DNA of 64,000 nucleotides from Staphylococcus phage vB_SepM_BE08. Below the pieces are notes generated by a model. The model saw nothing but the letters and a program-made list of their open reading frames with translations. It was not told where the DNA came from and did no database searches. The translations under genes were made by a program, and so were the position numbers. Positions 7,917 through 54,033 of the stretch are shown here, in pieces. Location: sequence record MT596505.1, one strand, 5' to 3'. Numbering within the stretch: position 1 is the stretch's first letter; every line of letters begins with the position of its first letter.

Positions 7917-8168
7917 TATTATCAATTCCTTTCTGTGAATTACTGTAATTATATATTACCATTTATCTTATGATTAATCAATAGATTTACATGAATTTAT
8001 TTAAATTTTTTTATTGGTCTGTTTTCTACTATTATATGAAGAAACTGGAAAATAGGTTAAAATAAAATTAGATTGTGTACAACAAGATCTCACCATAAAA
8101 AAATTATTCTATAAAAAAATTATAGAAATATAATGTACCTGTCATGATCCATTTATAAACAGAAATAA

Positions 8169-8226
8169 GGTGTAAAATTGCCTATTGATTTTGAACATGG
8201 TTTATTATATAATGGAAGTGATGACT
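8169..8226 (+). promoter_or_regulatory. conserved plus-strand promoter element copy 2 (TTGATT-N17-TATAAT-GGAAGTGATGAC)
   Basis: ttgatt 8185-8190, tataat 8208-8213; homologous to 5325-5382. Confidence 0.5.
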
Positions 8227-8501
8227 ATCTTTAAGTTAATAAATATATTATATAAAAAAATTATATAATACCCTTTTTTTATAACCCACCCACCACTCCA
8301 ATTATTATGTTAAGGCATTTTTGCCAATTTGTCAAGAGGTAAATTTTACACTTTTTTCTTTTGTAAATAGTGTAAAATTGCCCTAAAAACTTTTAAAATT
8401 ATATTTACAAATACGGTAATATGCTGTAATATATTAAGTGTAGTAAGCAAGGGAAACAAATTCCCACTACAAATATTATATAAAAAAGGAATTGATTAAA
8501 A

Positions 8502-8723
8502 ATGAAAAACGTTAAAAATTTAAAAAATTGGTTAAAAAGAAATGATTATGATTTTGAAGAATACAACACGCCAGACGGTTGTGGGAGCACATTGAAAGGG
8601 ATTATCATTCATAACATTGAATTTGCTACTGAGAATGATGAACTAGTTGCTCTATTCCCTGATGGTGATTATGAACACATGACAAACAGACAAGCTTATA
8701 ACTTTATAAGAAAAAACATTTAA
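8502..8723 (+). CDS. hypothetical protein (73 aa)
   Basis: leader AAAGGAATTGATTAAAA-ATG on plus strand; promoter-like TTTACA-N17-TAATAT at ~8402-8431. Confidence 0.6.
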   Translation: MKNVKNLKNWLKRNDYDFEEYNTPDGCGSTLKGIIIHNIEFATENDELVALFPDGDYEHMTNRQAYNFIRKNI

Positions 8724-8755
8724 TAAAAAAATTAATTAAAAAGGAATGAATTATA

Positions 8756-8956
8756 ATGACACATATTAAAGTAGATAAAAGAAAATCATTAAATAAAAAT
8801 ATAAAAGAAAATGGATTAAAAAAAGAATTAAATAAAAATAGTGGAAAAATAAAAATAAAAGAAAGTTTATTAAGAAAAGCAAAAAGAAATAATGATATAG
8901 AAAAAATTAATAAACTAGAAAATGAATTAAAAAAATTATATAATCAATTAGACTAG
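8756..8956 (+). CDS. small lysine-rich basic protein (66 aa)
   Basis: SD AAAGGAATG; terminator hairpin ctagggaaaaccctag over stop. Confidence 0.55.
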   Translation: MTHIKVDKRKSLNKNIKENGLKKELNKNSGKIKIKESLLRKAKRNNDIEKINKLENELKKLYNQLD

Positions 8957-8976
8957 GGAAAACCCTAGTCTTTTTA
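8953..8976 (+). terminator. rho-independent terminator ctaggg-aaaa-ccctag + TTTTT
   Basis: palindrome plus T-run. Confidence 0.65.
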
Positions 8977-8996
8977 TGTTCTATATCTTATATCTT

Positions 8997-9189
8997 TTTT
9001 AGGGGAAATCCGTACGATACTACTTGCTATTTTTAGGGGAAAATCGACACCAGACTACTTGAAACAACTAGCCTTTTTCATACAATACTACTTACTAATT
9101 ATGTATATTTATAAGAATATTTGAATAAAATTCATGCAATACTACTTACATTATATAGTTAATATATAAACAATACTACTTGAATATAT
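8997..9189. repeat. five degenerate 34-bp tandem units with conserved core CAATACTACTTG (iteron-like array)
   Basis: core starts at 9018, 9052, 9086, 9139, 9173 (spacings 34, 34, 53, 34); first two units also share TTTTAGGGGAAA. Confidence 0.7.
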
Positions 9190-9600
9190 AATAGTATTCA
9201 GGAAGGTAGTGGGTAGATTAACCCCCTAGTATTAAAAAAGATATTAATACTAGAGCTAAATCATATTTCAGTTTAGGCTAGGTCTAGTTTCATTTTTGTT
9301 AATATTTTTACACGCACTCTTATCCACGCAACCTAACTTAATAGGTTAATACTACCCCGTTCATATTGAACCTAAGAGTCCTCCCTGTCCTTTATTGCTT
9401 GGTAGACACCACCAACTATGGTAGAAGGTATAGTGTATCTATACCTACAAAGTATAAGCATTGCATATCTTATACCCGCCCTGTGAGTTTTATGCAGGTG
9501 CTCGTGGCTCACTATCACCACATCATTGTCGCTATTCCTATAGGTTCCTATGCATGACCTATACTCATCAGCTCTTTATCTTATTGTACTTATACTATAC
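9190..9600. ncRNA. GC-elevated (~40%) ORF-free island with multiple hairpins; candidate structured RNA or foreign DNA remnant
   Basis: compositional contrast with ~28% GC surroundings; only junk ORFs (Cys/His/Tyr-rich, no RBS). Confidence 0.2.
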
Positions 9601-9720
9601 CATACTTTTAATATCAGGTCAAGTAAAAAATGATAACTTTTACTTATTACTTATTATAAGTTTATCTTATTGTAAATAAAACCTTTTTGAAATTTTTGAG
9701 TACCCTATTGTAAAAATTTT

Positions 9721-9829
9721 TAAGGGGGTATCATCCTAAATTTTTTAAGGTCTTCATCCTAAAAAAATAAGACCGCTTCATCCTATTTAAGTGAAGCGGT
9801 TTAACCTAAATATACTTCATCTTAAAAAA
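9721..9829 (+). promoter_or_regulatory. four direct repeats of TTCATCCTAAA (plus GAAGCGGT hairpin) immediately upstream of a consensus promoter
   Basis: repeat cores at ~9731, 9754, 9777, 9816. Confidence 0.45.
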
Positions 9830-9832
9830 TTA

Positions 9833-9861
9833 TTGACAATCTAATTATCCTATAGTATAAT
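9833..9861 (+). promoter_or_regulatory. consensus sigma-A promoter TTGACA-N17-TATAAT
   Basis: ttgaca 9833-9838; tataat 9856-9861. Confidence 0.65.
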
Positions 9862-9902
9862 TAACTTAACAAATTAAATTTATTAAGAAAGGAGTTAATA
9901 CA

Positions 9903-9983
9903 TATGATTAACTTTTTAATTGGAGTATTTGTAGGTGGAACATTAGTATTAATCGAGAATGTAATTATGAATAAATATATGTA
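9903..9983 (+). CDS. 26-aa hydrophobic peptide (MINFLIGVFVGGTLVLIENVIMNKYM)
   Basis: strong SD AAAGGAG 9 nt upstream; single predicted TM segment. Confidence 0.4.
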
Positions 9984-9995
9984 GGAGTGATACAA

Positions 9996-10181
9996 ATGTC
10001 TTTAAGTACATTATTTGGAACTATAGGAGTTATTTTATTAGCAATTGTATTTTTAATAGTGACTATTGAAGCTATTATTGAATTAATAAAAGAGAAAATG
10101 TATATACAGTTAGTTATTTTCTTATTATTAGTATTAGGTTTAATATCATTAATATTAGCATCTATATTCAAATATTATTAA
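9996..10181 (+). CDS. 61-aa two-TM membrane protein (start re-assigned to ATG with SD AGGAG)
   Basis: two hydrophobic stretches; track start GTG lacks SD; antisense ORF 9965..10171 rejected. Confidence 0.5.
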   Translation: MSLSTLFGTIGVILLAIVFLIVTIEAIIELIKEKMYIQLVIFLLLVLGLISLILASIFKYY

Positions 10182-11963: not shown

Positions 11964-12023
11964 AGTAGTATAATCAATAAGGAGGAATAATATGGAATTT
12001 ACAATAGTTTTAATAAAGGTATA

Positions 12024-12218
12024 TTGCTATTATACAGAGATAATATTCAAGTAGAAACAGTAGATTTAGGTAAAGAGGAAGAAAGAAATGAATTTGAAAA
12101 AGTTTTATTCTCTCAAGATAATATCTATGATTTAATTGATGTATACTATTTTAAGTACATTGAAGCGGAAGAAGAAAGAGAAAACACACTTGAAAAAATA
12201 GAAAAATATTTTGAATAA
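12024..12218 (+). CDS. acidic hypothetical protein; start uncertain (TTG, or coupled to 20-aa leader ORF 11992..12054 in another frame)
   Basis: ORF without internal Met; strong SD AAGGAGG serves a short out-of-frame ATG ORF. Confidence 0.35.
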   Translation: MLLYRDNIQVETVDLGKEEERNEFEKVLFSQDNIYDLIDVYYFKYIEAEEERENTLEKIEKYFE

Positions 12219-12226
12219 TAATTACT

Positions 12227-12250
12227 AGACCTCTTGTCAAGAGGCCTTTT
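12227..12250 (+). terminator. short hairpin cctct-tgtca-agagg + T-run
   Basis: inverted repeat after stop. Confidence 0.45.
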
Positions 12251-12293
12251 CTATGTTATACTTATAGTATAATAAATAAGGAGGAGTTACATA

Positions 12294-12554
12294 ATGATTG
12301 AACTTAATAAAGTTACAGGAGAAGAAAGTGTTAATGTAGGAGATTTAGTACAAGACGACTATACAGGTGATATAGGTATTGTAATTAAACAAGACTTTAA
12401 TAGTACTTCAAGTATTTATAATGTACTAATACTAGATACAATAAATGAAGAACACAGTTTACTATACCTAGAACCTAAAACATTATATGATATATCAAAA
12501 GACTTTACTGTAATACAAAAGAAAAATAACTATAAACTTAATATAGAGTATTAG
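12294..12554 (+). CDS. hypothetical protein, tandem paralog A (SIYNVLILDT...NYKLNIEY)
   Basis: SD AAGGAGG; paralogous to next gene. Confidence 0.6.
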   Translation: MIELNKVTGEESVNVGDLVQDDYTGDIGIVIKQDFNSTSSIYNVLILDTINEEHSLLYLEPKTLYDISKDFTVIQKKNNYKLNIEY

Positions 12555-12572
12555 TATAAGGAGGTATAAATA

Positions 12573-12839
12573 ATGATTGAAGTAGTAAAAAAGAAAAGTA
12601 CTAGACCATTACAAGATGGAGATTTATTATATGACAGTGATTTAGATATGTATGGCTTTATAATTAAAGAAGATACCAGTAATTATGAAAGCATATATAA
12701 TGTCATGTTACTTGATACTAACTCAAAAAAGCCTGAATTATATTTCTCTGAGCCTATAACACTAGAAGAAATAGAAGAGTTTGGATTTAATCTAGTAAGT
12801 AAAAAAGGTAACTATAATATTAAGATAGAATACAGTTAA
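12573..12839 (+). CDS. hypothetical protein, tandem paralog B (SIYNVMLLDT...NYNIKIEY)
   Basis: SD AAGGAGG. Confidence 0.6.
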   Translation: MIEVVKKKSTRPLQDGDLLYDSDLDMYGFIIKEDTSNYESIYNVMLLDTNSKKPELYFSEPITLEEIEEFGFNLVSKKGNYNIKIEYS

Positions 12840-12912
12840 TACTACATGGACTATACATTAGAATAGTTTAACTATATATTAGAACAATTGAATAGTATAT
12901 CAGAATAGTTGA

Positions 12913-12948
12913 GTACCGCTTCAGTAATATAGAAGCGGTACTTTTTTG
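12913..12948 (+). terminator. terminator gtaccgcttc-agtaatata-gaagcggtac + TTTTTT
   Basis: 10-bp stem, T-run. Confidence 0.7.
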
Positions 12949-13218
12949 TTTATTATTAAGTTGTATACAATAGTAATGTAATGTTTAAATATACTATAGT
13001 AGTAATATAAATAAATTATAGTAAACAGGTAACGTCAAAACAGGTCAAGACAACGAATAGGACAGACAAAAAAATCCTAGGGTAATTGGTTTACTTTTTT
13101 CTTTTTTTCTATATACTTTTAATTTTTCCTTATTTATACTATATGGTTTTCTTCTCTCCTTTTATCTCCTCTCTTCTACTTTTTTAAATAACTCTACCTA
13201 CATATCTATTTTTTTATC

Positions 13219-13243
13219 TATATATATATATATATATATATAT
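13219..13243. repeat. (TA)12 dinucleotide repeat
   Basis: seen directly. Confidence 0.9.
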
Positions 13244-13390
13244 GTCTATATACTTTATTCCTCCCTTTTAATAATCAAAGAGTAATAATACAAAGAATAG
13301 GAGTTTTATTTATATATTAATAAGTAATAAGTAATTAGTTTCTTTTTTCCTTGGTTTTCTTTTTTTTTCTTATTTTATTTAAAGTCAACA

Positions 13391-13408
13391 TTATTATTAT
13401 TATTATTA
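13391..13408. repeat. (TTA)6 repeat
   Basis: seen directly. Confidence 0.9.
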
Positions 13409-13808
13409 CTATACCTCATCCCTATTTCTTCTATATTACTTTATTAATAAAACCCCTATATATACTACTTATACATAAGGGTCTTTACTTATATTATTCT
13501 TATTCTACTTGTACATACTTACTTAACTGATAAATAATTTTTTTATGTTATTCTATTCATAATTATTTACTATATAATTTAGCTAAAGTTTCAAGCGGTA
13601 ATTCAATTAATTCCCCACTAAATAATAAATCTTTTACTTTTTTAGGTACAGATACATGATAATCTAAGTTTAAACTATTTATGATTTCACTAGCTTTCCA
13701 GTTTAATTCAATTTTATACATAGAATTTTCTCTAACCTTTTGATGTAACTTTTTAATAAGTTCTGGTTTATGAGTTAAATGTTGAAACTATGCCTAATGA
13801 TTTTAATT

Positions 13809-14051
13809 TCATTTATTAATCCTCCTTCTAATTTTAGCATAATCCCACAGCTGTTTATATTCTGGAATAACAGGTAATAAATAATACTTATCTGTACTAT
13901 TCTTATTTAGTTTCTTCAAAACTCTTTTTGCTTTCTTTTTATTAGGGAATATTCTTGGCGTTATCTTAGTTAAAATAGTAAAATCTTTATACTTCTTATC
14001 ATAAAAAGCAATTGAGTGTTCAAGTTCTGTAGCTATAACATATTTAGTCAT
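13809..14051 (-). CDS. hypothetical basic protein (80 aa)
   Basis: ORF, SD AAGGAGG. Confidence 0.55.
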   Translation of the reverse strand: MTKYVIATELEHSIAFYDKKYKDFTILTKITPRIFPNKKKAKRVLKKLNKNSTDKYYLLPVIPEYKQLWDYAKIRRRINK

Positions 14052-25513: not shown

Positions 25514-25766
25514 TATATAACTCCTTTCTATATACCTAATGCTATTAAGATAAGGCTTACTAAGATAAGCACTACCATAATTAACATTATTAATAGAGGT
25601 ATGGCTTCTTCTTTATTTCCATCTTTAAATAGTTTAATTACTTCTACTAAAACACTAAAACAAATAGCTAAGTAAAATAAAGCTAATACACTTGCTAAAA
25701 TAATAAAACCTATAACTTTTACTCCTCCTTATTTATTATATATAAACTATAACATAAAAAAAGACC

Positions 25767-25795
25767 CCTGTCAATAGGGGTCAGTAAAAAATTTT
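25767..25795 (-). terminator. terminator hairpin gacccctgtcaataggggtc after SPFH gene
   Basis: 8-bp stem with U-run on minus. Confidence 0.5.
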
Positions 25796-25833: not shown

Positions 25834-26646
25834 TTATTTATGTCTCATATCTAATATAGCATTTCCTGAATCTGGTAATGTGATAGGTGTATCACCTTTC
25901 CATTTTTCGATAAGTTGTTTTTGTAGTAACTCATCTGTTAATGATTCTTCTACAATTTCATTTGCTTTCTTAGTACCTTTTGCTTCAATTTCTTTACGTT
26001 CAGCTTCTTCTTTAGCAATTTGTTTGTCAACTTTCTTTCTCTCTAATTCTTGATTTGCTTTAACACGACTGTCAATTGCTTTTTGAGTATTTTTATCTGC
26101 TTTTGGAGAACTTAAAGCAATATCTTCAACAATAAAACCTTGACCTTTAAGATTTTCTTCAAGTTTATCTAAAGTAGATTTTTTAATTTCACTTGTTTTA
26201 ACACCGAAAGCATCAATTACTGAGTATTTAGAAACAGATTGACGTACGTTATCTTGTACTCTTGAACGTAAATAACCTTTTTCTAGCTGTTCAATATCTG
26301 CACTACCAAAACGATTAAATAATTCAACTGCTTTTGAGCTATCAACTTTATAGTTTACATCAATATCTAAATTAAGGTTTTTACCATCTGACGTTGATAC
26401 ATTCATATCTTTGTAGCTGATAGTTTGTGTTCTTGTAGGATATTCATTTACTCTGTTCATAGGTGCTACTAAGTGCCAGCCAGGACTTAGAGTATTATCC
26501 TTAACACCTTTAGGTGAGTATACAACACCTACTGTTCCTTGCGGTACTCTTTCAATACTTAGAAACGCAATTATAATTGCTACAATAATAATAATACCGC
26601 CTATAGTTAATCCTAAACCTGCTTTTACTTTACTTTCCATAATCAT
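25834..26646 (-). CDS. SPFH/band-7 (prohibitin/flotillin-like) membrane protein
   Basis: N-terminal TM then IERVPQGTVGVVYSPKG...GWHLVAP SPFH signature and long charged coiled-coil. Confidence 0.65.
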   Translation of the reverse strand: MIMESKVKAGLGLTIGGIIIIVAIIIAFLSIERVPQGTVGVVYSPKGVKDNTLSPGWHLVAPMNRVNEYPTRTQTISYKDMNVSTSDGKNLNLDIDVNYKVDSSKAVELFNRFGSADIEQLEKGYLRSRVQDNVRQSVSKYSVIDAFGVKTSEIKKSTLDKLEENLKGQGFIVEDIALSSPKADKNTQKAIDSRVKANQELERKKVDKQIAKEEAERKEIEAKGTKKANEIVEESLTDELLQKQLIEKWKGDTPITLPDSGNAILDMRHK

Positions 26647-26915
26647 TCTCCTTTTTTAATATCTTTATGAAGTTTTTTTAACTCTGATATTTCTTCTTCA
26701 AGTTCTTTAATTTGAGATACACTCGATGTTGATGATTCTAATGCTTCTTTTTCATGGTTTTTTAATTCAATCTCATAGTCAACCATTTTTAATCTCTTAT
26801 TAATTTCTCTTTTCTCTATTTCTTTCCTTACATACTCAAATAGCTTAGTTGCTCCAATAATTATACCTAGTATGATTACTACAAAAATTAAAGCAACTAA
26901 TAGTAACCAAGCCAT
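26643..26915 (-). CDS. small TM + coiled-coil protein, translationally coupled to SPFH gene (ATGA overlap)
   Basis: N-terminal hydrophobic helix, charged helix. Confidence 0.5.
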   Translation of the reverse strand: MAWLLLVALIFVVIILGIIIGATKLFEYVRKEIEKREINKRLKMVDYEIELKNHEKEALESSTSSVSQIKELEEEISELKKLHKDIKKGE

Positions 26916-26985: not shown

Positions 26986-29322
26986 TTAACTATCTCTCCA
27001 AACTTGATTTATTTCATTATGAGTTCTTCCTGTTTCATTTTTTGCAAATTCTTCTTGCATTTTTCTTAAAGTGATAATATCTGTATTCTTAAGTTCTTTT
27101 CTAGTTAAATTAGAATAATCACGAACCCAGTAATAAAAAGCTCTTAAACTTTCGTTTTCTTGTAAAATTCTTTGAATAGGTCGTCTATCATTACCTTTAG
27201 CTAAGCTTTCTACGATACCTCTCATGTATTTCCAGTCATTATAGTACTTAGATTTATACTTAAACATAAAACCATTTGAATCTTCAAATACATATCCTTC
27301 ATGTTTAATATCTAAAGAATTATGATTATTCTTATACCAATCATAAAACTCTACCCAAGTATCGAACATAAGAGACCATGATTTAAAAGGTACTCCGATA
27401 GATAAAGCAAATGTATAAGTATTGGAATAACTTTCTTTTTTGAATTCTAAAGTATTATGAATAATATCTAATAAAACGATATGACTTTTATCATATTCAA
27501 TGATATGTGGGTCGTTTTCAATATCAATAACTTCAAACACTAAAGTTCTATCATGTTCTTTAAGATACTTAACGATTGTTTCTACTTGAATATCATCAAA
27601 CTGCTTATCAAATAAATCTTTAAACCATAGAGCATAATCATTATTATGCTTACTTAAATGTGTTTTTGATTTACTACAAAAGACTAAATCATCAATGTTA
27701 GAATCAAAGTAAACTAAACCTAAATAACCATTCTCTTTTTTATAACCATATAACGGAAATTTAATAATATCAGGTAATGCATCTAATTTTGTCTCAGGTC
27801 TTTCATTAATATTGAAAAATTTATTATAACCTCTACCTAAAATTTTATTTACTAGAGTATCAATAAATAATCCTCTAGCACTTACTGTTAATTGGTTCCA
27901 TCTTTTTTTATCAAATGCTTTTTTAGTAAAGTTAACAGATACTACATAATTGTACTGTTCAATGACTTTGATAGATTTTTTCTCTTCTTTAGCTAAACTT
28001 AAATATTTATCTACTGTTAAATCTTTATCAATTGATTTTAAATAGTCTTCATTAACTAAGAACTTATGATTAAATTTTTCATTTTTAATTAATACGGGGT
28101 CAATAGAGTTGTCACTATTAATCGTTACTGCTCTTAAGTAACCACCTTTTTCAACTCTACCTTCTAAGTTGATAGAATTTTTTGTTAAATCTAAACGTTC
28201 ACGATATAAATTTCTATGACCGTGAATCTGAATAACTGAACTATCTTTCCATTTACTGTCTACATCAAATTCATAACTACCTACACCATTAATAAGTTGA
28301 TGTGTTGATACTTTATTTAAATTATCTAACATATTAGGTAAGATACCACCATGATTAATAACATAGTACTGTCCTCTATAATTAAAGTATAGAACTTGTT
28401 GTAAGTTTCTTAAAATAGCACGTACTCGTTTAGGTGTAATACCATTATCAAGGAAAGATTTTAACGTGTACACAAAACCTCTAGCTTTAAATACATCTAA
28501 GGCTAATTTAAATAGTTTAGTTTTATCATCACTAACTTCATGGAGCTCTTTATACGTATCTGTATCTAAGTGAGCATACCTACGTAAATGTCTTTCATGA
28601 TTACCTTCTAATAATTCTACATTGTCTAAGTTATGGATAAGTTCTAAATAATCAAAAGTTTCTTTAGGTTCTAAACCTCTATCAAAGTAATCTCCTACAA
28701 AAATGAATAATTCGTTAGGGTGGTCTACAATGTAGTTATAACTAGCAAATTCATTTAAAGCTGTGAAACAAGAATGTACATCACCGATAACATGAATTTT
28801 ATCATAATGATTTACTTCCATAAAATCTTTATCCCACTCAAGAGAATCTAATACTTCTTCAGGTTTTAATTCTTTTGCAACGCTAGGAATATGCTCATGT
28901 TGTAGTCTTTCATAAATATTCTCAATAACTTCTACAGGAACTTGTTTTAATTTTTCCCTTTGGTTATTACGTTCAATTAATGTGTCTAAGTCTTCTTCTA
29001 AGGTTACTACATAAACACGATAACCATATACTTTAGCTAACTTCTCATATCGTTTAATTAATTTACCTGTAGAGTGTGTAGCATCAATTACAGTAAATTC
29101 ACCATTACTCATACGATTCTCTAAAATTTCAAATAATGTTTTCCAAACTAGATTATCTTTATCTTGAGTAATCGCTATTCTACCTTCTTCATTATAGATA
29201 GGTGAACCGAATTGTAATCTTAAAGTGTCTGGACTTAATGTGTAATTTTCTAGTCCTTTCTCTTTAATAAAAGTAGATTTACCTACACCTGGTACACCTC
29301 TCATTAATAATAATTGTTTCAT
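26986..29322 (-). CDS. trifunctional Pnkp-like RNA repair enzyme: 5'-OH polynucleotide kinase (GVPGVGKST), calcineurin-like phosphatase (GDVHS, GDYFDRG, GNHE, GHRN), C-terminal ligase-like nucleotidyltransferase (KENG...EGYV...KYK)
   Basis: 778-aa ORF; motif order matches bacterial Pnkp architecture. Confidence 0.65.
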   Translation of the reverse strand: MKQLLLMRGVPGVGKSTFIKEKGLENYTLSPDTLRLQFGSPIYNEEGRIAITQDKDNLVWKTLFEILENRMSNGEFTVIDATHSTGKLIKRYEKLAKVYGYRVYVVTLEEDLDTLIERNNQREKLKQVPVEVIENIYERLQHEHIPSVAKELKPEEVLDSLEWDKDFMEVNHYDKIHVIGDVHSCFTALNEFASYNYIVDHPNELFIFVGDYFDRGLEPKETFDYLELIHNLDNVELLEGNHERHLRRYAHLDTDTYKELHEVSDDKTKLFKLALDVFKARGFVYTLKSFLDNGITPKRVRAILRNLQQVLYFNYRGQYYVINHGGILPNMLDNLNKVSTHQLINGVGSYEFDVDSKWKDSSVIQIHGHRNLYRERLDLTKNSINLEGRVEKGGYLRAVTINSDNSIDPVLIKNEKFNHKFLVNEDYLKSIDKDLTVDKYLSLAKEEKKSIKVIEQYNYVVSVNFTKKAFDKKRWNQLTVSARGLFIDTLVNKILGRGYNKFFNINERPETKLDALPDIIKFPLYGYKKENGYLGLVYFDSNIDDLVFCSKSKTHLSKHNNDYALWFKDLFDKQFDDIQVETIVKYLKEHDRTLVFEVIDIENDPHIIEYDKSHIVLLDIIHNTLEFKKESYSNTYTFALSIGVPFKSWSLMFDTWVEFYDWYKNNHNSLDIKHEGYVFEDSNGFMFKYKSKYYNDWKYMRGIVESLAKGNDRRPIQRILQENESLRAFYYWVRDYSNLTRKELKNTDIITLRKMQEEFAKNETGRTHNEINQVWRDS

Positions 29323-29339
29323 AATTACCTCTCCTTTTA

Positions 29340-29928: not shown

Positions 29929-29981
29929 AATATACCTCCTTTAACTTAACTATAAACTATAATAACTTTTTTGTCAAGTAC

Positions 29982-43654: not shown

Positions 43655-44898
43655 TCTTCATCCGTACCTTTGTTTTCAATTTCAGTACTTTTAATCTCAT
43701 AAAAATCTTTAAGAGCTTGATATTCTTCAATAGTAGTAATATCCACTATTTTATTTTCTAAAGGTCGATACTTAGTAGGAAAGTTTTCAAAGTATACTCT
43801 ACTAAATAATTCTAAATACAAATCATGATTATTAACAAGTGTAGGAACCCAATCTTTATCATAGTGTTTAATTTCTTCACCATTTAAAGTTACATAGTTA
43901 CGCCATGTTCCTTTAGAAATTAAACCTCGTTCTACTGCTTCCTTATAAACTGTGTGATAAGGGTCAATACCATCTAATAACATCGTATCATCTTTAGAGC
44001 CTACTTCATAACTTGATAATAAATCTGCTTCCGCTTTTTGTCCTGGTGTAACTAATTTAGATTTTTTAGTTTCAATACGCATTACATGACCTCTATAAGT
44101 AGGCTTACCTGTTGTTACATCTGTTTGTTTAAGACCTGATTCAGCACCCTTGGTTACTTTAATACGTAAACTAGCACCATGCTCAAAAGCTCTTCCACCT
44201 GTTGATTTTATAGGGTCACCATACATACCTGCGTTCATATCATCGCGAGCTTGGTTGATGATAACTAACCCTGTATTAGTATCATTGAGTTTAGGAGTAA
44301 TAGCATTGATTACTTTTTGTGTAGCTGAGGCTTTTAAACCCATTTGTTTTTCATCAATTCCTCCTTCAATTTCTTTAGCTGTTCTTGTAGCTCCTAGAGA
44401 ATCCCAAATAAATAAAATAGGTACACCAGGTGCTTTTTCGTTAAAAGTATCAATCCAATATTCTAATTCTTTTCCTACAGTTTCTACTGATAATTCAACA
44501 GTATTTTTAAGTCTACCTTCTCCTGCTTGAATAGTAAATAATTTAGATACATCTACCCCTAGTTGCTTCATTCGTTGGTTATCTGCTGTTCCTTCAATAT
44601 CAATCCAAATAGTAATAACACCTAGTTGTGTAGTTATTCTAGATAAGTGTACTGCAAACGTGGATTTACCCGAACCTGTTAGCCCATACACTTCTGTAAG
44701 TCTTCCTAAAGGAATACCTCCCCCTAGAATTCTATCATATTGAGGAACCATAGTAGGAATTATATTTGTAATGTCTGCTTTATTACTATCTGATAATAGA
44801 GTTAAACCCATTTCTTTACCTAAATCAATGGTATTGTAATCTTTCATATCTATTTCTTTACCTTTTTTTGCTCTTGCCATTATCTTATCACCTTTCAA
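43651..44898 (-). CDS. RecA/Rad51-like recombinase (Walker A GLTGSGKST)
   Basis: P-loop and RecA-like core by inspection; nested ORF 44150..44530 is an artefact. Confidence 0.7.
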   Translation of the reverse strand: MKGDKIMARAKKGKEIDMKDYNTIDLGKEMGLTLLSDSNKADITNIIPTMVPQYDRILGGGIPLGRLTEVYGLTGSGKSTFAVHLSRITTQLGVITIWIDIEGTADNQRMKQLGVDVSKLFTIQAGEGRLKNTVELSVETVGKELEYWIDTFNEKAPGVPILFIWDSLGATRTAKEIEGGIDEKQMGLKASATQKVINAITPKLNDTNTGLVIINQARDDMNAGMYGDPIKSTGGRAFEHGASLRIKVTKGAESGLKQTDVTTGKPTYRGHVMRIETKKSKLVTPGQKAEADLLSSYEVGSKDDTMLLDGIDPYHTVYKEAVERGLISKGTWRNYVTLNGEEIKHYDKDWVPTLVNNHDLYLELFSRVYFENFPTKYRPLENKIVDITTIEEYQALKDFYEIKSTEIENKGTDEE

Positions 44899-44937
44899 TT
44901 AAAAAATCAAATAAAAGAGTGCTTAAGCACTCTAATA

Positions 44938-46182
44938 TTACATGTCTAGGTTTAAACCTTTTAGAACATCATCAACATTTTTTGGCTGTTCCATTTTAGG
45001 AGGTTCTTGATATTGCTGTTGATTTTGTTGTACGTTTTGTTGTTGAGGTGGTTGTTGCTGACTTCCAGTGTCGAAAGGTACTTGAGAGTCATTAATAGTA
45101 TTCTCATCAAAATTCTCCCAAGGATTATTTCCTTGTGGCTGTTGTGGATGCTGTGGTGCTTGTTGTACCTGATTAAACTGTTGCTGTTGAGTTGGTTGTT
45201 GAGTATTCTGTTGCGATTGAGTATTAATAGTATTCCAATCATTCTGTGGTACTTGTTGTGTGTTTTGTTGTGGTTGATTACTTAAATTACCTGGTAACTG
45301 TTGTTCTACTTGTTGTTGTGTTGGCTGTGGTTGCTGTGTTTGTTGTACAGGTTGTTGTGGTTGGCTAGGTGCATCCCCTAATGTATTTGTATCTCTATTA
45401 AAAGTAAAGTTATCTGTTTCTAAAGGTGTTCCATTTACTTTATTAATTAAGAAGTTAACAAGATTAGGGTTCACTTCTTCTGTAGGTTGTGCTAACTTAT
45501 CTAAATCTGAAGATAGTTCTATCCAATTTGATGGTAGGTTACCAAATTGATATTGTGGATTAGAGTATACTTGAACGTACCAATTTGTTTTATCATTTTC
45601 TTTTGCTTTCTTAAACATTACAGGATAAGCAATATTTTCAGAAATAAAGCTAAATTTAGCATCAGGTGAAGGGTTAAACATTTCATCTCCTAATTGACTA
45701 GCTAAAGCATTATATGCTGTAATAGGAATTTCTAAAGGTGAAATCTTAGGATTACCTGAGTTATCTACTACAGGTTGTAAAGTACCACCATTATTAATAT
45801 ACTCAATAACTTCAATGTAATATCTGTTAGATGGTCTGTTAGGGAATCGACTAAAAGGAACCTTATTAGCTATCCAAGATTCAATAAATGGGTCAATAAC
45901 TGACTCTCCTGATGTAGCTGGTAGTGTTAAACCTACGAATTTTTGCTCATTGTTTTTATTGTTGAAGTTAATACCTGTGTTTCTAAATTTCTTATAAAAT
46001 TCTAAAGAACCTTCTTTTTTAGGTGGTAAAATACGTACTAAAATTGAATCTTTAGTTGAACCATCTTTTTGCTTACCTAATCGAATAACTGGATTTTTAG
46101 GTGTATAGTATTCCACCTCATTATTGTTATTATTTTGTGTTTCTTTTGCTTGTTGGTTAATAAATTCTGTAAATGCTGACAT
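44938..46182 (-). CDS. Gln/Pro-rich protein with acidic C-terminal tip (possibly ssDNA-binding)
   Basis: low-complexity Q/P linker 230-380, ...DDVLKGLNLDM end; 44961..45242 and 45007..45285 are repeat-driven artefacts. Confidence 0.35.
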   Translation of the reverse strand: MSAFTEFINQQAKETQNNNNNEVEYYTPKNPVIRLGKQKDGSTKDSILVRILPPKKEGSLEFYKKFRNTGINFNNKNNEQKFVGLTLPATSGESVIDPFIESWIANKVPFSRFPNRPSNRYYIEVIEYINNGGTLQPVVDNSGNPKISPLEIPITAYNALASQLGDEMFNPSPDAKFSFISENIAYPVMFKKAKENDKTNWYVQVYSNPQYQFGNLPSNWIELSSDLDKLAQPTEEVNPNLVNFLINKVNGTPLETDNFTFNRDTNTLGDAPSQPQQPVQQTQQPQPTQQQVEQQLPGNLSNQPQQNTQQVPQNDWNTINTQSQQNTQQPTQQQQFNQVQQAPQHPQQPQGNNPWENFDENTINDSQVPFDTGSQQQPPQQQNVQQNQQQYQEPPKMEQPKNVDDVLKGLNLDM

Positions 46183-52627: not shown

Positions 52628-54033
52628 ATTTATTCTTCATCCGTTGTCAAAAACTTATAAAACTTTATAAATCTTATTCCTTTTTCAATGTACCCTCTTT
52701 TGAGTATTTCATATACATAGATTACTTCTTATTACTCTACTTGAGTTTGTATGATACTCCAAAGGCTTAAATTCCCGTACAACGAACGGTACATATATTT
52801 AGTATCTTGTTTTTGATATTCTAAATATTGTAGTTAGCTAAATTAATACTTGCATTGAGGTCTCTATCAAGACTAAAACCACATTCACAGTTAAATATTC
52901 TATCTGATAGTTTTAGGTTTTGATTAATAGTTCCACAGTTAGAACAAGTTTTACTAGAAGGATAAAATCTGTCTGCTAGTATAACTTCAATACCCTTTCT
53001 TTTACACTTATACTCTAACTGTCTTCTAAACTCGTAGAAACCTTGTTTTTGTATTGCTTTAGCTAAATGCCTATTCTTCATCATACCACTTACATTTAAA
53101 TCTTCTATAACAATTCTTCTAGGTTTGGTTTTCACGATAGAAGTTGTTGTTTGATGTAAATGGTTTTTACGAATGTTAGACAATCTTCGTTGTAGGAGTT
53201 TAATTTGTTTTTCAAGTTTTATAATATTGCAAGTTTTGACAAACTTTCCTCCTTCTTTATTTTTTTGATATTTACGAGATACCTTACGTTGCAATCTACG
53301 TAATCGTTTTTCTAGTTTTTTAACTTTTACTGTTTTATTTATGTTTCCATAAATAGTTCCATCAGAACATATTACTAATTCTTTTATTCCTAAATCAATA
53401 CCTAGTGATTCATCAGTTAGTTCTTCGTAGATGTTTTCTTCTTCAATAGAAACACTTATATACCAATATTTACCATCAAAAGTAATTCTAGGATTATAAT
53501 ACTTAGTATTCGTTGGTAGTTGTTCTGATGTTTTAACCCAACCTATTCTTTGTAACAATACTAAATTTTCTTTTACTCTTAATCTATGTGTATCATTATA
53601 AAAACTAGGTTTTGTTTTCTTCTTATATTTAAACTTAGGAAATTTAGCTTGTCCTTTAAAGAAACGCTTATAAGAAATACAAGCATCTTTAACTGCTTGT
53701 TTAGGAATATTGTTACTAACTTCTTTTAGCCATTTATACTCTTCTGTTTTCTTTAACTGAGTAATTTCTTTACGTAAAACAGAATCTTGTATAAACTTTT
53801 TTCCTTGTTTATAATTTTCTTGTTGTTTTGCTAAAGTCCAGTTGTATATAAATCTTGCTGTTCCTGCTGATTTATATAATTGTAGCTCTTGTTGTTTAGT
53901 AGGTCTAAGCCTAACTTTTTTAGTTATCATTATTTAGCCCACCTTAAGATATGTTATCACCTCTACAAGTATTATAACATATCTTAGGTAAAAATGCAAC
54001 TTAATTTATAAAAAAGTTATAAATTTATATTAA
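52628..54033 (-). mobile_element. IS200/IS605-family (IS1341-type) element carrying tnpB only; left-end-like 13-bp inverted-repeat hairpin at 53944-53987; long 3' noncoding tail
   Basis: unusually long flanking gaps (193 and 103 nt) around tnpB; subterminal hairpin; boundaries not determinable. Confidence 0.4.
52821..53930 (-). CDS. tnpB: TnpB (OrfB) RuvC-like RNA-guided nuclease: RuvC-I IDLGIKE, RuvC-II IVIEDLN, Zn finger CSNCG...CECG, RuvC-III DRDLNASINLA
   Basis: all catalytic motifs intact; N-terminal LRPTKQQELQL motif. Confidence 0.8.
   Translation of the reverse strand: MITKKVRLRPTKQQELQLYKSAGTARFIYNWTLAKQQENYKQGKKFIQDSVLRKEITQLKKTEEYKWLKEVSNNIPKQAVKDACISYKRFFKGQAKFPKFKYKKKTKPSFYNDTHRLRVKENLVLLQRIGWVKTSEQLPTNTKYYNPRITFDGKYWYISVSIEEENIYEELTDESLGIDLGIKELVICSDGTIYGNINKTVKVKKLEKRLRRLQRKVSRKYQKNKEGGKFVKTCNIIKLEKQIKLLQRRLSNIRKNHLHQTTTSIVKTKPRRIVIEDLNVSGMMKNRHLAKAIQKQGFYEFRRQLEYKCKRKGIEVILADRFYPSSKTCSNCGTINQNLKLSDRIFNCECGFSLDRDLNASINLANYNI

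Follow-up and report, generated by a model that had tools for sequence, protein, structure and literature searches.

A putative single-chain RNA repair enzyme of sepunaviruses with Pnkp-like healing modules and a Trl1-like ligase

Introduction

Three combinations of enzymes that heal and seal RNA ends have been characterised: the T4 pair Pnkp and Rnl1, bacterial Pnkp/Hen1 and eukaryal Trl1. In the Pnkp/Hen1 system, the ligase of C. thermocellum Pnkp (CthPnkp) needs the N-domain of Hen1, and 2'-O-methylation by Hen1 protects the repaired site from being cut again. Trl1 is pursued as an antifungal target. A distinctive all-helical C-domain defines the Rnl6 clade of ligases, which was founded by fungal Trl1, and this domain reportedly lacked structural counterparts in proteins other than Trl1 (PMC6379707). 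Here we analyse a gene in a stretch of 64,000 nucleotides from Staphylococcus phage vB_SepM_BE08 (sequence record MT596505.1), below called the window. The window is that of a Sepunavirus (phiIBB-SEP1/Quidividi-like, Herelleviridae). The gene product joins a kinase, a phosphatase and a ligase domain, and we consider it quite likely to be an autonomous, single-chain heal-and-seal RNA repair enzyme.

Results and Discussion

Domain organisation

One open reading frame (ORF) fills positions 26986..29322 of the minus strand, running from an ATG at 29322 through 778 codons to a TAA at 26988..26986. At the base composition of the 64-kb window (G+C ~26%), the chance of 778 stop-free codons is ~1e-35. 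A preliminary description of this DNA had divided the product into three domains in the order kinase, metallophosphoesterase and ligase. All the motifs that it quoted were found, and Pfam profiles agreed with the division: AAA_33 matched residues 4-138 (E 4.6e-21), Metallophos residues 175-377 (E 4e-13) and RNA_lig_T4_1 (PF09511) residues 482-693 (E 1.3e-37). The motifs are GVPGVGKST (9-17), GDVHS (180-184), GDYFDRG (210-216), GNHE (240-243), HGHRN (367-371), KENG (529-532), EGYV (675-678) and KYK (688-690). The gene and its predicted parts are as follows.

26986..29322, minus strand: complete ORF of 778 amino acids, kinase, phosphatase and ligase in one putative RNA repair protein; counterpart of phiIBB-SEP1 gp099 and Quidividi_174
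28828..29322, minus strand: P-loop 5'-OH polynucleotide kinase, residues 1-165; key residues P-loop G9-K15-S16, Asp32, Arg35 and Arg122
28078..28815, minus strand: binuclear metallophosphoesterase of the 2',3'-phosphatase type, residues 170-415; active site D181, H183, D211, R215, N241, H242, H324, H369 and E387
27250..27990, minus strand: Rnl1-like adenylyltransferase (N sub-domain and nucleotidyltransferase core), residues 445-691; PF09511, aligned to the ligase domain of Trl1 (Trl1-LIG) and to T4 Rnl1
26989..27249, minus strand: all-helical C-domain of the Trl1 type (Rnl6), residues 692-778; K698-x-x-R701 directly after motif V, and a conserved IIxLR (R753)
27736..27738, minus strand: codon of Lys529, predicted adenylylation site in motif I (KENG), equivalent of CthTrl1 Lys148
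27505..27507, minus strand: codon of His606, equivalent of CthTrl1 His227 in the triad proposed to bind 2'-PO4 (PMC11404444)
27220..27231, minus strand: Lys698-Tyr-Met-Arg701, equivalent of CthTrl1 Arg334-x-x-Arg337 (PMC6379707, PMC12440814)

The last ~13 residues of the protein are predicted to be disordered. Conservation was scored in 122 full-length homologues down to 29% identity, a set that spans Lactobacillus phage Bromius (29%), Fusobacterium phage FNU2 (34%) and Brochothrix phage A9 (39%).

The healing modules resemble those of CthPnkp

We searched all PDB sequences with a profile built from 38 homologues (A1). It matched the CthPnkp kinase (4gp7/4jst, E ~5e-12) and also the CthPnkp phosphatase (4j6o). 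With a profile of the phosphatase domain only (A3), 4j6o was the sole phosphatase in the PDB whose alignment covered the entire domain (E 1.4e-12; profile positions 8-219, chain residues 12-241). This alignment takes in the helical insert between the GNH(E/D) and HGG motifs, whereas protein phosphatases aligned over the first ~90 residues only. Foldseek ranked the relatives in the same order as the sequence-profile searches. On profiles and predicted structures, the kinase and the metallophosphoesterase are closest in sequence and fold to the modules of CthPnkp.

The catalytic residues of both modules are conserved. In the kinase, K15, D32, R35 and R122, which correspond to the P-loop lysine, Asp35, Arg38 and Arg126 of T4 Pnk, are invariant in the 122 homologues; residue 16 is Ser or Thr. 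Nine residues are essential for the CthPnkp phosphatase: D187, H189, D233, R237, N263, H264, H323, H376 and D392 (PMC3675462). They map in this order to D181, H183, D211, R215, N241, H242, H324, H369 and E387 of the phage protein. All nine are invariant in the homologues, with the exceptions of H183 (His in 119, Gln in 3) and E387 (Asp in 1). The calcineurin-type phosphoesterase with a full motif set, as first described, was borne out by the Metallophos match and by these nine kept residues.

The Gln that replaces the metal-ligand His183 (codon 28774..28776) in 3 of 122 homologues stands at the site equivalent to CthPnkp H189, where the change H189D leaves the 2'-phosphate. Judging from the alignment, these three homologues may represent natural variants in which healing ends differently.

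The kinase and the phosphatase might instead serve another job, such as protein Ser/Thr dephosphorylation, like lambda phosphatase/NinI, or the healing of DNA ends. The ligase would then be separate or have a non-repair function, for example tail-fibre attachment, a function ascribed to T4 gp63. Some GenBank records do speak of a 'putative serine/threonine protein phosphatase'; there are weak matches to PHROG 246 'NinI-like phosphatase' and PHROG 562 'RNA ligase and tail fiber attachment catalyst' (E ~3e-23 each); and T4-type kinases also phosphorylate DNA. However, hundreds of divergent homologues have the same three-domain fusion with all three active sites kept, which argues for one coupled pathway. 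Moreover, the full-length alignment of the phosphatase, insert included, is with the Pnkp RNA-repair enzyme only, and the gene lies in an early/accessory region outside the tail module. We regard such another job as very improbable and retain RNA repair as the likely function of the three domains.

The ligase is nearer to Trl1 than to T4 Rnl1

The C-terminal nucleotidyltransferase with motifs I, IV and V that had been proposed from the motifs is confirmed by the PF09511 match, and Lys529 is the predicted site of adenylylation. To place it among RNA ligases, a profile of the ligase only (A2), made from residues 432-778 of 13 homologues, was run against the PDB with a threshold of E<=10. It matched fungal Trl1 ligase domains (9qw7, E 6.7e-30; 6n0v, 6n67, 9r3w and 6n0t, E 1e-20 to 4e-19), and the only other PDB match was T4 Rnl1 (E 6e-10). 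At this threshold no Rnl2, Rnl3, Rnl4 (Pnkp) or Rnl5 chain was retrieved. The A1 profile likewise matched Trl1-LIG (E 1.8e-31) in an alignment that continues through the C-domain. The Trl1 alignments extend beyond motif V over the complete Trl1 C-domain. The A2 alignment to T4 Rnl1 ends at chain residue 249, and an hhalign alignment ends at residue 252 (T4 sequence entered by hand).

In the N sub-domain, Arg99, Lys120 and Phe121 of CthTrl1 correspond to R483, K501 and F502 of the phage protein, and the adenylylated Lys148 corresponds to K529. The adenylyltransferase residues are completed by E-N-G after K529 in motif I, E597 in motif III, E675-G676 in motif IV, and K688 and K690 in motif V. 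R483, K501, K529, E597, E675/G676 and K688/K690 are invariant in the 122 homologues, and F502 is nearly so. Beyond motif V, the family consensus 'K-x-K-..YYNxWKxMR' aligns with 'K323-Y-K325-FEEPYLMYR334QWR337' of CthTrl1, and the C-terminal 'dIIxLR' aligns with 'GIIKLR' of Trl1. His227, Arg334 and Arg337 form a triad that binds sulfate in Trl1 structures and was proposed to enforce specificity for 2'-PO4 ends (PMC11404444, PMC12440814). These three residues correspond to H606, K698 and R701, which are invariant in 122 of 122 homologues.

The adenylyltransferase N sub-domain and motifs I, III, IV and V expected of Rnl6 are present. So, in the predicted structures, is the all-helical C-domain, the feature that defines this clade. 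As modelled, the ligase fits the structural definition of Rnl6; the functional hallmark of that clade is dependence on 2'-PO4. Compared with T4 Rnl1, the phage ligase contains the adenylyltransferase domain type (PF09511) and lacks the C-terminal tRNA-specificity domain. Taken together, the alignments point to a ligase that is Rnl1-like, nearer to fungal Trl1 (Rnl6) than to T4 Rnl1, and not of the Rnl4 type.

Proposed reaction and chemistry of the junction

The repair reaction would have three steps. The central metallophosphoesterase, of the Mn2+/Ni2+ binuclear type, would open the cyclic phosphate and then strip the phosphate to give a 3'-OH. The N-terminal P-loop kinase would phosphorylate the 5'-OH. 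The C-terminal ligase would adenylylate itself on Lys529 with ATP, pass AMP to the 5'-phosphate and join the ends. With an N sub-domain of the Rnl1-like kind and a Trl1-like C-domain of its own, the ligase is built like the autonomous T4 Rnl1 and Trl1-LIG; we infer that it works partner-free and has no need of a Hen1-type activator.

No methyltransferase domain was matched among the ten neighbouring ORFs, so there is no adjacent Hen1, as the preliminary description had said. Nor does a Hen1-like gene stand next to the gene in the annotated relatives SEP1 and Quidividi or in the other contexts checked.

A standard 2'-OH junction is, in our judgement, the probable product; a 2'-PO4 junction is unlikely. 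Wild-type CthPnkp gives 2'-OH/3'-OH ends that T4 Rnl1 can seal (PMC1920235, PMC2190708). With the single change H189D, the enzyme halts at 2'-PO4, an end that is sealed by yeast tRNA ligase, which means that 3'-OH/2'-PO4 ends can come from a phosphatase of this type (same sources). It is conceivable, if rather doubtful, that the phage enzyme follows the chemistry of Trl1. The phosphoesterase would stop at 3'-OH/2'-PO4, or the ligase would capture this end; the ligase would prefer or require the 2'-PO4 and leave it at the junction. The presence of the Trl1-specific C-domain is in keeping with this, as are the matching and invariant triad positions (PMC6379707, PMC11404444, PMC12440814), at whose His position T4 Rnl1 has Ile (T4 sequence entered by hand). 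The Gln at the His183 position in three members and the lack of any Hen1 seen beside the gene fit as well.

Several observations speak for complete removal of the phosphate. H183 is kept in 119 of 122 homologues and R215 in all 122; their equivalents in CthPnkp are needed for the monoesterase and not for the diesterase activity, and their conservation argues that the phosphate is fully removed. No Tpt1/KptA was found in the window, in any related locus retrieved or in 80 viral loci (0/80), and no Staphylococcus phage group occurs among 98 Tpt1-bearing phage records. The probe, an E. coli KptA sequence entered by hand, does pick up phage genes with the annotation RNA 2'-phosphotransferase and so is a working probe. 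A lasting 2'-PO4 in the anticodon loop is expected to impair tRNA function, and yeast Tpt1 is essential. Residue 698 is Lys and not Arg. Finally, plant tRNA ligase needs the 2'-PO4 yet lacks both arginines, so the triad is no reliable predictor (PMC12440814).

We also considered, as a tentative and rather improbable proposal, that the family is a prokaryotic-virus branch of Rnl6 that has kept the 2'-phosphate pocket. It would seal 3'-OH/2'-PO4 ends handed over by the fused phosphoesterase, and the 2'-phosphate would stay. If so, the junction phosphate would persist without Tpt1 and could shield the repaired RNA from transesterifying ribonucleases. This would amount to a Hen1-independent 'immunisation' of repaired tRNA, and the family would show, as a living model, how the ligase chemistry of eukaryal tRNA splicing could have arisen. 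We keep the 2'-OH junction as the preferred product.

Distribution and gene neighbourhoods

At E<=1e-10, 746 protein clusters matched in a full-length search; nearly all of the 120 listed carry the same three Pfam domains. In IMG/VR, the number of viral contigs with a relative is at least 378. Most members of this large family belong to phages or prophages. The family is frequent among large phages and prophages of Bacillota, and Fusobacterium phages have members too.

Its contexts include Herelleviridae of Staphylococcus, Brochothrix and Lactobacillus, a Staphylococcus pseudintermedius prophage, phage-like contigs of 100-200 kb and one apparently chromosomal copy in Thermoactinomyces. In the Fusobacterium siphovirus FNU2, the homologue lies 0.9 kb from a cluster of five tRNA genes. 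In one island (L007), LigA, a sigma factor, RlaP and a CCA-adding enzyme are encoded after the homologue, the last two 2.9-4.9 kb downstream of it. In Brochothrix phage A9 (L015 3418..5834), the homologue comes directly after the NAD+ salvage pair of PRPP synthetase and nicotinamide phosphoribosyltransferase (NAMPT). In an SPbeta-like prophage of Bacillus halotolerans (L003 16019..16906), the YoqV DNA ligase gene and arbitrium genes lie within 8 kb of the homologue, and ~6 kb from it stands Gad1, an anti-Gabija gene. The placement by NAD+ salvage genes in A9 and the proximity of Gad1 in the B. halotolerans prophage suggest a counter-defence gene neighbourhood. As raw counts, tRNA genes lie within 10 kb of the homologue in 13 of 60 viral loci, RlaP is present in 4 of 80, and a CCA-adding enzyme is present in 2 of 80, both of these with RlaP.

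By analogy with T4 and with surveys of phage RNA repair (PMC9503650, PMC7824862), the three activities would serve to repair tRNA or other RNAs in counter-defence. We take tRNA to be probably the substrate. Use against host RNA-cleaving defence nucleases is plausible from the phage and prophage distribution and from some of the neighbourhoods. The strong Shine-Dalgarno sequence and host-type promoter match described below count in favour of expression of the gene.

Other observations weigh against a counter-defence enzyme that repairs tRNA. The associations with tRNA genes and with RlaP and CCA-adding enzyme are found in a minority of loci and are raw counts only. There are no tRNA genes in the 64-kb window, most of the ten neighbouring ORFs checked have no assigned function, and the analysis identified no anticodon nuclease of the host. 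A phosphatase that fully removes the 2'-phosphate is not easily squared with the conserved Trl1-like His-Lys-Arg triad. Copies of the gene are truncated or split in some Twortvirinae, lineages that can therefore do without the intact enzyme. The full-text literature searched holds no biochemical or genetic study of any member; the RNA repair survey of Burroughs & Aravind (2016), outside this search, may describe the architecture.

The ligase with the Trl1-like C-domain also occurs alone (~290-450 amino acids), with the phosphatase only or with the kinase only (P0121-P0238). Some of the stand-alone ligases are named 'T4 RnlA family RNA ligase' or 'tRNA splicing ligase'. These shorter forms, many of which come from short contigs, may be fragments. 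Silviavirus PM56 (L016 2579..4021) has an ORF of 480 amino acids that starts inside the phosphatase domain, phage Alsa_3 (L017 1569..4237) has two adjacent 'RNA ligase' ORFs of 379 and 485 amino acids, and S-CoN_Ph8 has a ligase-only protein of 442 amino acids. Proteins P0033 and P0061 are listed with these copies. P0042, a metagenomic homologue of 1001 amino acids, contains NUMOD/HNH homing-endonuclease domains.

The gene, its transcription unit and its relatives

The gene lies in a minus-strand unit that extends from a promoter match at 29977..29949 to a hairpin at 25782..25763 and is shared with small membrane proteins and an SPFH/Band_7 protein. The features of the unit outside the repair gene are as follows.

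29949..29977, minus strand: sigma-70-like promoter match TTGACA-17-TATAGT, 11/12, a consensus match only; SEP1 annotates a promoter at the equivalent place
29328..29336, minus strand: strong Shine-Dalgarno sequence AAGGAGAGG, 5 nt upstream of the ATG of the repair gene
26643..26915, minus strand: gene for a membrane protein of 90 amino acids, downstream of the repair gene and apparently co-transcribed
25834..26646, minus strand: gene for an SPFH/Band_7 protein of 270 amino acids, downstream of the repair gene and apparently co-transcribed
25763..25782, minus strand: hairpin resembling an intrinsic terminator, then a T-run; a terminator is annotated at the matching site of SEP1 and Quidividi

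The promoter match is likely the start of the transcription unit that holds the repair gene, and the hairpin is likely its end, both as read from the DNA.

The repair gene has 97-98.8% DNA identity to 15 S. epidermidis Sepunavirus records, including Quidividi, phiIBB-SEP1, BE04 and phiIPLA-C1C. In GenBank, its counterparts SEP1 gp099 and Quidividi_174 are named 'RNA ligase', 'polynucleotide kinase' or 'hypothetical protein', and PHROG 8238 'RNA ligase' matches the 778-residue protein end to end (E=0). The gene family is therefore already in databases, under generic names only. As a candidate anti-phage defence protein the repair protein was rejected, there being no PADLOC match for it.

Close to the repair gene there is repeatedly an SPFH/Band_7 gene (loci L004, L039, L042, L045, L047, L050-L055, L058, L064, L072, L080, L089 and L092), on the same strand in all viral loci. 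In sepunaviruses, it lies 343 bp downstream of the repair gene, after the 90-residue membrane protein. In a metagenomic clade of 12 loci, it lies 24 bp upstream; in L092, it is 765 bp downstream, and in three other loci, it is 1.4-2.1 kb upstream. A Band_7 gene also adjoins the chromosomal Thermoactinomyces copy, where the two are convergent. The Band_7 proteins of the linked loci are only 23-30% identical to one another.

Other features of the window

A gene for a TnpB/IS605 OrfB protein of 369 amino acids occupies 52821..53930 (minus strand) and has HTH_OrfB_IS605, OrfB_IS605 and Cas12f1-like TNB domains. Directly after it lies a match to RAGATH-18 RNA (52765..52677, minus strand; 61 bits against a gathering score of 44.9). 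This was the sole match in an Rfam scan of the window, far from the repair gene, and it looks like the guide (omega/re) RNA of the TnpB element. Quidividi has no insertion at this site; its own IS605 OrfB sits elsewhere, at a place that is empty in the window. The different sites indicate that the element moves among sepunaviruses.

The GC skew is near zero at 8001..10000, 12001..14000 and 44001..46000 and is strongly negative across the rest of the window; G+C reaches 0.336 at 44-46 kb. Possible sources of these shifts are plus-strand genes or inserted introns and homing endonucleases. Relatives carry introns or homing endonucleases in the DNA polymerase, RecA and Mre11 genes.

Comparison with known systems

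The preliminary description had assigned the protein the architecture of bacterial Pnkp. The domain order and the healing modules uphold this part of the comparison, for the phage protein shares both with C. thermocellum Pnkp. The ligase departs from it, being of the Rnl4 type in C. thermocellum Pnkp and apparently Rnl1-like, of the Trl1 type, in the phage protein. The curated model TIGR04075 scores 59 bits against a cut-off of 750, and its match covers residues 4-250 only, that is, the kinase and the start of the phosphatase. Three things keep the protein out of the Pnkp family: its ligase is of another type, its score lies below the curated cut-off, and no Hen1 partner stands beside it.

With fungal Trl1 (PDB 6n0v, 6n67, 8rbj, 9qw7), the likeness is in the ligase, at ~23% identity. 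Even there, Arg334 of Trl1 is Lys in the phage protein, and His241 of motif IIIa is Leu618. Trl1 is eukaryal, has the order ligase, kinase, cyclic phosphodiesterase (LIG-KIN-CPD) with a phosphodiesterase of the 2H type and uses a GTP-dependent kinase, whereas the phage protein has the order kinase, phosphatase, ligase and healing of the Pnkp type. It is not a Trl1 holoenzyme, since the domain order differs and the phosphoesterase is not 2H.

The arrangement of T4 Pnk with a separate Rnl had been set aside from the start, rightly, since the phage protein has a metallophosphoesterase instead of a HAD domain and its ligase is fused. T4 Pnkp (PseT) has a C-terminal HAD (DxDxT) 3'-phosphatase where the phage protein has a calcineurin-type metallophosphoesterase, and the kinase part alone matches T4 Pnk. 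The T4 pair of Pnkp and Rnl1 (RnlA) would be alike in presumed biology.

Two further systems differ in how the activities are joined. Capnocytophaga Pnkp1/Rnl/Hen1 (PDB 4xrp) is a Hen1-dependent complex of three proteins, whereas the phage enzyme is one chain. Baculovirus AcNPV ORF86 has the order ligase, kinase, HAD phosphatase. Neither joins a metallophosphoesterase and a Trl1-type ligase in one chain.

A phage RNA repair enzyme is an ordinary concept. What is noteworthy is the chimeric make-up and the wide spread in bacterial viruses of a domain that was supposed to be unique to Trl1: clear relatives of the Trl1 C-domain exist in these viruses. The family bears on the question whether staphylococcal phages, therapeutic Twortvirinae candidates included, mend RNA cut by HEPN RNases, toxin-antitoxin RNases, anticodon nucleases or similar host defences, and it may offer a tractable bacterial system for how 2'-phosphate specificity arose. 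Beside T4 Pnkp with Rnl1, bacterial Pnkp/Hen1 and eukaryal Trl1, it appears to represent a fourth combination, that of Pnkp-type healing with Trl1-type sealing.

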